IMG/VR virus record: IMGVR_UViG_2711768058_000007
Coordinates: 1 to 4,335 of that record
Origin: a virus
Lineage: Duplodnaviria; Heunggongvirae; Uroviricota; Caudoviricetes
DNA length: 4,335 bases
Reading direction: 5' to 3' (one strand)
This document shows, one piece after another, positions 1,479 to 2,338 of this stretch; within the stretch, counting starts at the first letter, position 1, and each line of letters begins with the position of its first letter. The translations under genes and the position numbers were made by a program. The notes beneath the pieces were generated by a model, which did no database searches, was not told the origin of the DNA, and saw only the letters and a program-made list of their open reading frames with translations.

Positions 1479-2174
1479 TCATGCTGCGGTAGCTCTCCAT
1501 GCAGCAAGCAGACCAGCAATCCACTGAACACCTTTTGGGGTGAATTTAACCTGCGTAAAAGCATGACCATTGCCCGCCTCGCCCGTTTTCACGCTAAACC
1601 GCCCCGCATCCAGGTGATACGAGTAAGGCGTCATTTTTCCAGCGAGGCGATACATTATTCCGTTCTCCAACAAAAACAGCCGGAAATCGGTTTCTTTGAT
1701 ACCGAGTAACTTAGCAACTTCCCGGAATCCCATCAGACCAGATGCTTCAACATAGTTATCAACAAATTTAGCCTTCGGCGCTGCTATTGCCAGTTGATTT
1801 TCCAGCACTGCTTTCTGTTCAGCCAGTTTTGCCGCAAATCGCAACGCCTCAGGTAAAGTCCGGGGGATCTGAATACCATGCATCGCTTTGAGTCTTGCCA
1901 GCACAGAACGACGAACGGCCTTTGACTCCCTCATGCCAACGAGCATCATCTGGTCAAAATCCAGATCATAGTATGCCGTTCTTGTCTGGTTATTGTTTAA
2001 CCGGAATTTTTTTCCGGTTCCATCAAGCTCTAGCTCATCCTCAATTTTTGCAAGAAACTTACGCGGTTCATGAGGGACTTCTCCGGCTTCTGCCCGGGCT
2101 GGATTAATAATGTTATTCAGAAAATCCAGACTACTCATGGATATTTCATGATCGACAGAAATCATCTCTTTCAT
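1479..2174 (-). CDS. Phage antirepressor, KilAC (ANT) C-terminal domain family
   Basis: 231 aa; the C-terminal half (FVDNYVEASGLMGFREVAKLLGIKETDFRLFLLENGIMYRL...KTGEAGNGHAFTQVKFTPKGVQWIAGLL) resembles KilA-C/ANT domains. AAGGAA lies about 9 nt upstream of the ATG at 2174. An ant-like gene between R and Rz is, as I recall, also seen in Stx2-type prophages. Confidence 0.8.
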   Translation of the reverse strand: MKEMISVDHEISMSSLDFLNNIINPARAEAGEVPHEPRKFLAKIEDELELDGTGKKFRLNNNQTRTAYYDLDFDQMMLVGMRESKAVRRSVLARLKAMHGIQIPRTLPEALRFAAKLAEQKAVLENQLAIAAPKAKFVDNYVEASGLMGFREVAKLLGIKETDFRLFLLENGIMYRLAGKMTPYSYHLDAGRFSVKTGEAGNGHAFTQVKFTPKGVQWIAGLLAAWRATAA

Positions 2175-2305
2175 GGTTGATTCCTTTTAGTGATGAACCC
2201 TGCGCACAGGAATAACCAGCCCAAAGAGGGTTAACCAGACCACTGCCGGTTATCCACCAGGGCTCATCCTGAAAGGTTCTTTGGTTTATTTACGCTTGTG
2301 CGAAG

Positions 2306-2338
2306 CGCAGAAATGACAAAGGCACCATTACGGTGCCT
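2306..2338 (-). terminator. Candidate rho-independent terminator downstream of the endolysin
   Basis: On the minus strand: 7-bp stem AGGCACC/GGTGCCT (plus 2320-2326 and 2332-2338), 5-nt loop, then a U-rich tail UUGUCAUUUCUG. The stem is short and no energy was computed. Confidence 0.35.

Follow-up and report, generated by a model that had tools for sequence, protein, structure and literature searches.

A Conserved, Structured Leader RNA Before the Late Antirepressor-Family Gene of a Stx-Type Lambdoid Prophage

Introduction

The stretch of DNA considered here (the window) is 4,335 nucleotides long, stems from a tailed-phage genome of the class Caudoviricetes (IMG/VR record IMGVR_UViG_2711768058_000007, positions 1–4,335) and is the late region of a lambdoid prophage of the Shiga toxin (Stx) type that lacks stx. 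It carries a gene of the antirepressor family, ant, between the endolysin gene R and the spanin genes Rz and Rz1. The ant gene and its position are an already known and annotated feature of Stx phages, a textbook annotation which alone has little weight. The non-coding DNA before ant, however, is more than a spacer containing a hairpin; it holds a conserved, covarying RNA element, a leader of approximately 115 nt folding into a long irregular hairpin (2175–2288) whose basal helix pairs with the Shine-Dalgarno sequence of ant. This leader was overlooked when the window was earlier interpreted from its letters and open reading frames alone (the sequence-only reading). It is common to unrelated regulator genes situated after or inside the lysis cassette of many medically relevant phages, among them 933W, VT2-Sakai, the O104:H4 phage P13374, and P22-like phages, and the part worth following is this leader RNA unit, which links ant, rha, and kilA-type late genes. 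All genes of the window, and all the features described below, are on the minus strand.

The Leader RNA and Its Conservation

At the base of the leader, CCUUU (approximately 2270–2274) pairs with the Shine-Dalgarno sequence AAAGG (approximately 2183–2187). For the comparison with other phages, 240 loci around relatives of Ant and of Rha were collected, in which the leader was found by nhmmer and then with a covariance model, R1. The model matches the window at 2172–2288 with 95.2 bits (E = 1e-21), the window sequence being part of the seed, and independent members of the family score 50–104 bits.

When the leaders were aligned with plain MAFFT, RNAalifold found the outer stem only (17 pairs, 10 of them compensatory) because insertions and deletions misalign the interior, and the covariance model was therefore built. 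The alignment used for covariation contains 56 distinct sequences and was fitted to this model. In it 85.2% of the leader cells are paired vs. 40–54% with slid partners, and 26 of the 27 leader pairs show compensatory change. The covariation score is 0.434 as compared to 0.06–0.11 for slid partners, and in none of 500 shuffles were the observed values reached. On the same alignment RNAalifold found 20 pairs independently, all of them with compensatory changes. Examples of compensatory arms are CCUUUCAG/CUAAAAGG, CCUUACAG/CUGUAAGG, and CCUACAG/CUAUAGG.

The window has no match in Rfam at E ≤ 1, the small RNA IsrK (RF01394) included, and the element is, judging from its sequence, a family absent from Rfam. 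Inspection by eye for IHF sites, boxA/boxB-like nut elements, pairs of GGA motifs for CsrA, and a conserved upstream open reading frame in the leader revealed none that is consistent across the family. The full unit to which the leader belongs has the order: G+C hairpin with T tract, sometimes a spacer of approximately 15 nt, a GCGC hairpin, an A-rich stretch, and the long irregular hairpin that pairs with the Shine-Dalgarno sequence.

Genes and Phages in Which the Leader Is Found

Every match to the leader (approximately 90) abuts a start codon, and the genes that begin there encode proteins of several types. Besides the KilAC-containing Ant of the window (95.2 bits), these are the 'ant' product of 933W and VT2-Sakai, which is composed of P22_AR_N and ORF11CD3 domains (101.5 bits), the Rha proteins of P13374 and Lys8385Vzw, composed of Phage_pRha and ORF11CD3, the KilA-N protein of the P22-like phage SE1Spa (92.7 bits), and the products of a few further gene types. 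For example, positions 2183–2283 of the window's spacer also match DNA of P13374 that precedes a Rha-family gene located behind Rz. P13374 and Lys8385Vzw each have the leader twice, once before ant and once before rha, and in a Rosenbergiella locus (L014) two leaders are arranged in tandem. Paired copies are in direct orientation (L004, 1909–2023 and 3270–3387; L002, 2020–2135 and 3588–3704; L014, 3227–3341 and 4088–4206). In L004 and L002 the copies flank Rz/Rz1, and recombination between them would therefore delete the spanin genes. Such paired copies could be points of module exchange.

The leader follows late-region position and not protein type. The leader is present in Yersinia pestis, Lonsdalea, and Serratia, in which the lysis genes precede the Ant gene (for Y. 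pestis and Lonsdalea in the order R-Rz-Rz1). In Providencia a full-length relative of Ant is encoded in the early operon, between cII and the replication genes (O/P), and Pseudomonas Ant loci have a similar gene order, the flanking genes having been identified for Providencia alone; at the Providencia and Pseudomonas loci no leader was found with R1.

That a leader of this kind can exist as a discrete RNA is indicated by P22F, an 89-nt small RNA of phage P22 that is abundant during infection, has its 3′ end 6 nt before the ATG of rha, is exported in vesicles, and was reported as a small non-coding RNA of unknown function (PMC13397905). P22F is 98.8% identical to leaders that score 80–86 bits with R1, and it can be aligned with the leader of the window. 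At least one member of the leader family is therefore transcribed and stable. Like the ant of the window, the rha gene behind P22F is a regulator gene of the late region; it is placed after the lysis genes (PMC13397905; Henthorn and Friedman, 1995, as cited in PMC8951638). The two cases differ in that the gene downstream of P22F is rha rather than a KilAC-type ant and in that P22F has not been described as a conserved leader pairing with a ribosome-binding site. The accumulation of P22F provides a testable handle on how late antirepressor, Rha, and KilA proteins are restrained and for what purpose.

Taken one step further, and here we are slightly more doubtful than convinced, the leader may represent an uncatalogued, widespread family of cis-regulatory RNAs of enterobacterial temperate phages, among them Stx and P22-like phages as well as prophages found in Yersinia, Serratia, and Klebsiella. 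Together with the terminator and the GC hairpin it would form a portable 5′ unit that gates the translation of late regulators via a shared signal, for which a host factor, RNase III, or some phage protein recognizing the conserved internal loop UGUGCGA(A)C would be candidates. If true, gating by the leader could explain the old observation that Rha is harmful to the phage in IHF-deficient hosts.

Two Hairpins Between R and the Leader

The spacer between R and ant is 273 nt long and as a whole folds with z = −5.1. Upstream of the leader it contains two hairpins, and the 56-nt stretch with both of them has a predicted folding energy of −26 kcal/mol (z = −5.1), none of 200 shuffled sequences folding as well. 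Hairpin 1 (2316–2342) consists of an 11-bp stem, GCAGAGGCACC/GGUGCCUUUGU, in which 2332–2342 pair with 2316–2326 around the loop GUAAU and which holds a 6-bp G+C core; the stem is followed by the tail CAUUUCUG (2308–2315). Hairpin and tail together (2308–2342) look like a degenerate intrinsic terminator, both by folding and by alignment with the terminators of relatives. Hairpin 1 is conserved in the R-ant spacer of other phages, and at its position 62 of 74 distinct relatives have a canonical terminator, that is, a G+C hairpin with a T tract. These terminators end 21–76 nt, mostly 21–46 nt, before the leader. The hairpin of the window aligns with the canonical terminators GGGGCTTTTTTAT of related cassettes, and its tail, TTTGTCATTTCTG, matches the TTTTTTATGTCCG of relatives.

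In the sequence-only reading a candidate terminator had been placed at 2306–2338, which comprises the G+C core, the tail, and the start of hairpin 2. The hairpin is real and canonical terminators are present at the same place in relatives, which bears out the proposal in part. What does not hold up is the U tract, which is degenerate: the G+C-rich stem-loop is there, an uninterrupted U tract is not. After the G+C core the tail reads UUUGUCAUUUCU, and, owing to the interruption in its T tract, hairpin 1 was not called by a consensus terminator scan, in which at least 5 T in 8 are required. Hairpin 1 thus resembles a terminator minus two or three T's, and transcript release from it is a prediction only.

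Hairpin 2 (2291–2309) is a small G+C hairpin predicted by folding, GCGCUU-CGCAC-AAGCGU. A hairpin of the form GCGC-loop-GCGC is present at this position in nearly all relatives. Its stem was seen by eye (uncounted) in the variants GCGC/GCGC, GCAC/GUGC, and GCUC/GAGC, and its loop is often like UUCACA or AUCGCA. Superficially hairpin 2 resembles a boxB of the P22 type; a boxA is not conserved.

How ant May Be Expressed

The late genes of lambdoid phages are transcribed as a single Q-antiterminated transcript from pR′. Downstream of hairpin 1 are Rz/Rz1 and the terminase and morphogenesis genes, and from established lambdoid biology the late transcript must therefore read through the hairpin. 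A scan of the window for promoters of the sigma-70 type detected none on the minus strand between 2175 and 2447. When the 70 nt preceding the leader were compared with the sigma-70 consensus in 67 distinct members of the family, the agreement did not exceed that of shuffled sequences, and no −10 element (TANNNT) is positionally conserved there. The proposal that the terminator would allow ant to be expressed separately from the lysis genes is thus not supported: a sigma-70-like promoter was found neither in the window nor in the family, and the late transcript has to pass the hairpin. Instead, the presence of a leader pairing with the Shine-Dalgarno sequence between the hairpin and the ATG points to a translational rather than a transcriptional separation, and the earlier view of the hairpin as uncoupling ant from late transcription is corrected accordingly.

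On balance we lean, if only by a little, toward the view that 1385–2361 is an accessory cassette held under a double lock by a terminator and a leader occluding the Shine-Dalgarno sequence, with late, Q-dependent transcription and with Ant as a regulator. The cassette would have no promoter of its own and would be transcribed only within the Q-antiterminated late transcript that reads through hairpin 1. In the lysogen, the terminator would stop unmodified RNA polymerase. When the late transcript is made, the leader, the structure of which is supported by covariation, would occlude the ribosome-binding site and keep the translation of Ant low or conditional, so that terminator and leader would form a double lock on a potentially harmful regulator. 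A membrane peptide of 29 amino acids, encoded directly behind ant, would be translationally coupled to it. Ant itself would most likely bind DNA or a repressor late in infection, this being the weakest step.

Several observations weigh against this proposal. With 62.5% pairing, the apical helix of the leader has little support, the true apex probably holding one more small hairpin, and the alignment from which covariation was calculated had been fitted to the model. The calculated probability that the Shine-Dalgarno sequence is unpaired is 0.20 for ant vs. 0.02 for S and 0.01 for ydfR, which does not single out ant. Computed accessibility is therefore not discriminating, and the claim of occlusion rests on the conserved pairing rather than on energetics. 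With its interrupted U tract, UUUGUCAUUUCU, and uncalled by the terminator scan, hairpin 1 may be a poor terminator or none. P22F has ends suggestive of processing, which could mean that the leader acts as a free RNA. Finally, the ant gene of Phi24B that was knocked out is a different gene, which lies upstream of qut in the early operon (PMC3064807).

Alternative Explanations and Known Systems

In one alternative, ant would be an autonomous moron with a promoter of its own just downstream of the terminator; it would possibly be expressed in the lysogen, and its product could inactivate repressors of the CI type that belong to other prophages. An independent unit would be expected to have a terminator at its border, as is found directly upstream of ant, and P22F, being discrete, could in principle be a primary transcript (PMC13397905). 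According to work cited in PMC3064807, P22 Ant inactivates the repressors of several lambdoid phages, and weak lysogenic expression has been reported for the ant of Phi24B, but this ant is located upstream of qut (PMC3064807). With the lambdoid morons the module of the window also shares that it is extra DNA between essential late genes that is absent from lambda (Juhala et al., 2000, as cited in PMC4104026). A classical moron, however, has its own promoter and a downstream terminator, whereas in the window the terminator is upstream and scans for promoters of the sigma-70 type were negative both for 2175–2447 and for the 67 family members. Moreover, the 5′ end of P22F is inside the basal hairpin of the leader, just 3′ of the arm that pairs with the Shine-Dalgarno sequence, and is implausible as a start site. 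We therefore consider an autonomous moron unlikely.

Equally improbable in our view is a main role of the leader as a small-RNA gene or as an RNA with two functions, like the IsrK RNA of Gifsy-1. A short, stable RNA resembling P22F would then act in trans, either opening the ribosome-binding site of ant or rha mRNA made by read-through or acting on host targets. The IsrK-orf45-anrP region of Gifsy-1 is the closest analogue of the window. There, an antirepressor-like gene of the late region comes after a Rho-independent terminator and a leader that is transcribed and translationally silent (PMC4825925), and thus terminator, leader, and antirepressor-like late gene are common to both. The differences are that IsrK is located directly after Q and has its own promoter, and that a short RNA activates translation of the antirepressor-like gene in trans through an upstream open reading frame (PMC4825925). 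The two systems are analogous, not homologous: in the Q-anrP region the best score with R1 was 11.7 bits (E = 0.13), Rfam gave no match in the window, and AnrP is an ORF6N protein without BLASTP similarity to Ant. In favor of a trans-acting RNA it can be said that, besides the Gifsy-1 precedent, P22F accumulates as an 89-nt species which is exported in vesicles (PMC13397905), and that in phages with two leader copies the one before ant and the one before rha could cross-talk. Against it speaks that the leader is not homologous to IsrK in the Rfam, R1, and AnrP comparisons, that the terminator is upstream of the leader and not at its 3′ end, which leaves the leader without a terminator of its own, and that all of the approximately 90 matches abut a start codon, as expected of a cis element.

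The hairpins could also be elements of RNA processing or stability at which the late transcript is cut, comparable to the RNase III sites of T7 and of the lambda N leader. In that case the S-R message would be shielded at its 3′ end by hairpin 1, and a cut in the leader stem would either make the ribosome-binding site of ant accessible or destroy it. Indeed, with over 20 bp in a long, almost uninterrupted duplex and with conserved internal loops, the leader has the typical shape of an RNase III substrate. The ends of P22F are defined, lying inside and just beyond the stem, and the lambda N leader is known to be controlled by RNase III (reference cited in PMC13397905). As we read the sequence, however, a single RNase III cut, which should leave ends staggered by 2 nt, would not give the ends of P22F. 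Processing is in any case compatible with the double lock rather than exclusive of it, and as the explanation proper it appears quite improbable. Finally, different coding modules joined to the same upstream sequence, with mosaic joints at its edges, form a pattern as described for lambdoid boundary sequences, but that the cassette is a functionless passenger and the upstream sequence only a recombination 'boundary' for module exchange is hardly credible, since a DNA-only boundary would not keep its pairing via compensatory double changes over approximately 100 nt and since the Ant family has kept 52 residues invariant across genera.

The ant gene of P22 also lies within late-transcribed DNA and is controlled at the RNA level, by the antisense RNA sar. 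Under the double lock, control in the window would be exerted by a hairpin in cis rather than by an antisense RNA. The window also differs from the immI region of P22 in having no P22_AR_N domain, no arc and mnt repressor genes, and no Pant promoter.

The ant Module and Its Occurrence

The open reading frame of ant (1479–2174; 231 amino acids), found in the list of open reading frames and matched by Pfam ANT and PHROG 63, is intact, starts with ATG, and is located between R and Rz/Rz1. The boundaries of the module of which it is part can be deduced from PhiR12_1, which has the R and Rz modules without ant and in which blastn homology to the window extends only over 783–1384 and 2362–3046. From the breaks at 1384 and 2362 it follows that the inserted module comprises 1385–2361, hairpin 1 included, and thus the terminator-like hairpin, the GC hairpin, the leader, ant, and an open reading frame for the 29-residue hydrophobic peptide MKMIKMDWKFLLVWLIPFLWVVARLITAIKR (1387–1476; weak match to PHROG 6632). 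The ATG of the latter overlaps the stop codon of ant (ATGA). The sequence-only reading was right in regarding ant as an insertion relative to lambda.

The stretch from R to Rz is matched by 341 phage records, and ant plus leader was found in 532 of 5426 complete E. coli genomes. The order R-ant-Rz is annotated in VT2-Sakai, 933W, the Stx1 phage phi-O153, P13374 from the O104:H4 outbreak, Phi24B ('d_ant'), and many others. For example, H0123 of VT2-Sakai, which is the same as L0109 of 933W and is annotated 'antirepressor protein Ant' (since approximately 1999–2000 with the addition 'similar to P22 Ant'), occupies the slot S-R-ant-Rz-Rz1 as in the window, after a spacer of approximately 270 nt behind R and with the same leader. 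The 933W/Sakai protein differs, however, in having 189 amino acids and P22_AR_N and ORF11CD3 domains, while the Ant of the window has 231 amino acids, an unassigned N domain, and a KilAC domain. P13374 carries the 933W type, and its homology to the window extends through R and the whole spacer and ends 13 nt into the ant gene. Thus the R-ant-Rz slot is conserved and the protein in the slot is not.

The Ant Protein

When both halves of Ant were searched for domains, residues 125–224 (1503–1802) matched the ANT/KilAC family PF03374 over profile positions 1–106 of 108 with E = 8.1e-28 and 97.3 bits (cut-off 25.3). The whole protein matches PHROG 63, 'anti-repressor Ant', and RefSeq proteins that are 99–100% identical to it are named 'phage antirepressor protein'. 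The assignment of ant to the KilAC-type antirepressors was thus correct, as was the statement that its N-terminal half cannot be assigned: for residues 1–132 there was no Pfam match even at E ≤ 10, and there was no NCBIfam match. The likeness to P22 Ant lies in PF03374, which Pfam titles 'Phage antirepressor protein KilAC domain'. The early Ant of Phi24B shows 82% identity with the last 104 residues of P22 Ant (PMC3064807).

In an AlphaFold2 model with an overall predicted local distance difference test (pLDDT) score of 76.6, Ant is composed of an N-terminal module of residues 13–99 (1878–2138; pLDDT 72–84), a long central helix of residues 107–145 (1740–1856; pLDDT 56–73), and a KilAC module of residues 146–230. 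The predicted order helix-helix-hairpin-helix-helix of the N domain suggests a winged-helix-like fold. PDB sequence searches with Ant and with the profile of its family gave no match, and a Foldseek search of the PDB with the model gave none below E = 0.1. P22_AR_N (PF10547) was not found in residues 1–132 by Pfam at E ≤ 10, and Phage_pRha (PF09669) was not found in Ant by Pfam. An impression by eye that the N domain might be Rha-like had to be given up, since hhalign against the Rha alignment gave a probability of 0.2% (E = 0.37), though the expected segment was aligned. The N domain recurs in PHROGs annotated as anti-repressors.

The invariant residues of the family are shared by members from Escherichia, Salmonella, Yersinia, Providencia, and other genera. 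Residues 34–73 of the N domain occur across the family in two sharply different versions, VPHEPRKFLAKIEDELELDGTGKKFRLNNNQTRTAYYDLDFDQ and KPVRPSDFHARVNDEIDEELNYENFVVGRTGHKTYYTMLNMEQ, while the surrounding protein is conserved. This suggests intragenic mosaicism, perhaps at a specificity-determining region. Ant is probably a DNA- or repressor-binding regulator of the domain-shuffled Bro/KilA/Rha/Ant class that is made late and in small amounts, our confidence in the target being low. A cross-induction of other prophages by Ant is pure speculation.

Other Genes of the Window and the Prophage

A stretch with 99.9% identity to the window is found in the chromosome of E. coli SHP24, flanked upstream by Q, methyltransferase genes, tRNA genes, and a SASA esterase gene and downstream by HNH endonuclease and terminase genes. 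In the order of transcription, the window begins with the end of the sialate-esterase gene, which is followed by DUF1378 (3978–4160), DUF826 (3671–3940), a P21-type holin gene S (3380–3595; 71 amino acids, full-length Pfam match), a YdfR/DUF1327 gene (3032–3376), and R (2448–2981; Phage_lysozyme, PF00959, E = 5.6e-25). The open reading frame of S is intact in the window, and its 99.9%-identical RefSeq copy in SHP24 (L001, 4850–5064) is annotated as frameshifted. With the YdfR/DUF1327 gene between S and R, the lysis cassette is interrupted a second time as compared to that of lambda.

Related prophages encode the small RNAs PasA/PasC and AgvB/AsxR between the esterase and holin genes (bioRxiv 10.64898/2026.05.13.724894; PMC4104026). 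In the window, where the relevant stretch is approximately 3600–4335, these RNAs have no Rfam match at E ≤ 1, and as candidates for the element in the R-ant spacer the Pas RNAs were ruled out by their location in the esterase-holin interval (bioRxiv 10.64898/2026.05.13.724894).

Behind the ant module there is an open reading frame for a hydrophobic protein of 43 amino acids (1253–1384; PHROG 4906, RefSeq WP_001280922.1), which belongs to the Rz module and is also found in PhiR12_1. Both this protein and the 29-residue peptide, encoded between ant and Rz, are of the single-helix type, and a role in lysis or in the membrane is possible for each. Then follow Rz (783–1226/1241; Pfam Phage_lysis and the RefSeq annotation of the SHP24 copy), with Rz1 (845–1030; Pfam Rz1) embedded in it, and a gene for a TonB_C lipoprotein of 113 amino acids (118–459; PF03544, E = 1e-14) with a lipoprotein signal peptide. 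The TonB_C gene occupies the position of bor in lambda and 933W and is labeled 'Rz-like spanin' in PHROGs. In SHP24, the slot between Q and the tRNA genes (L001, 9031–13534), which in Stx phages is that of stx, is occupied by genes for a DUF262 protein and a HEPN-like nuclease; with a DNA methyltransferase on either side, the pair looks like a defence insert.

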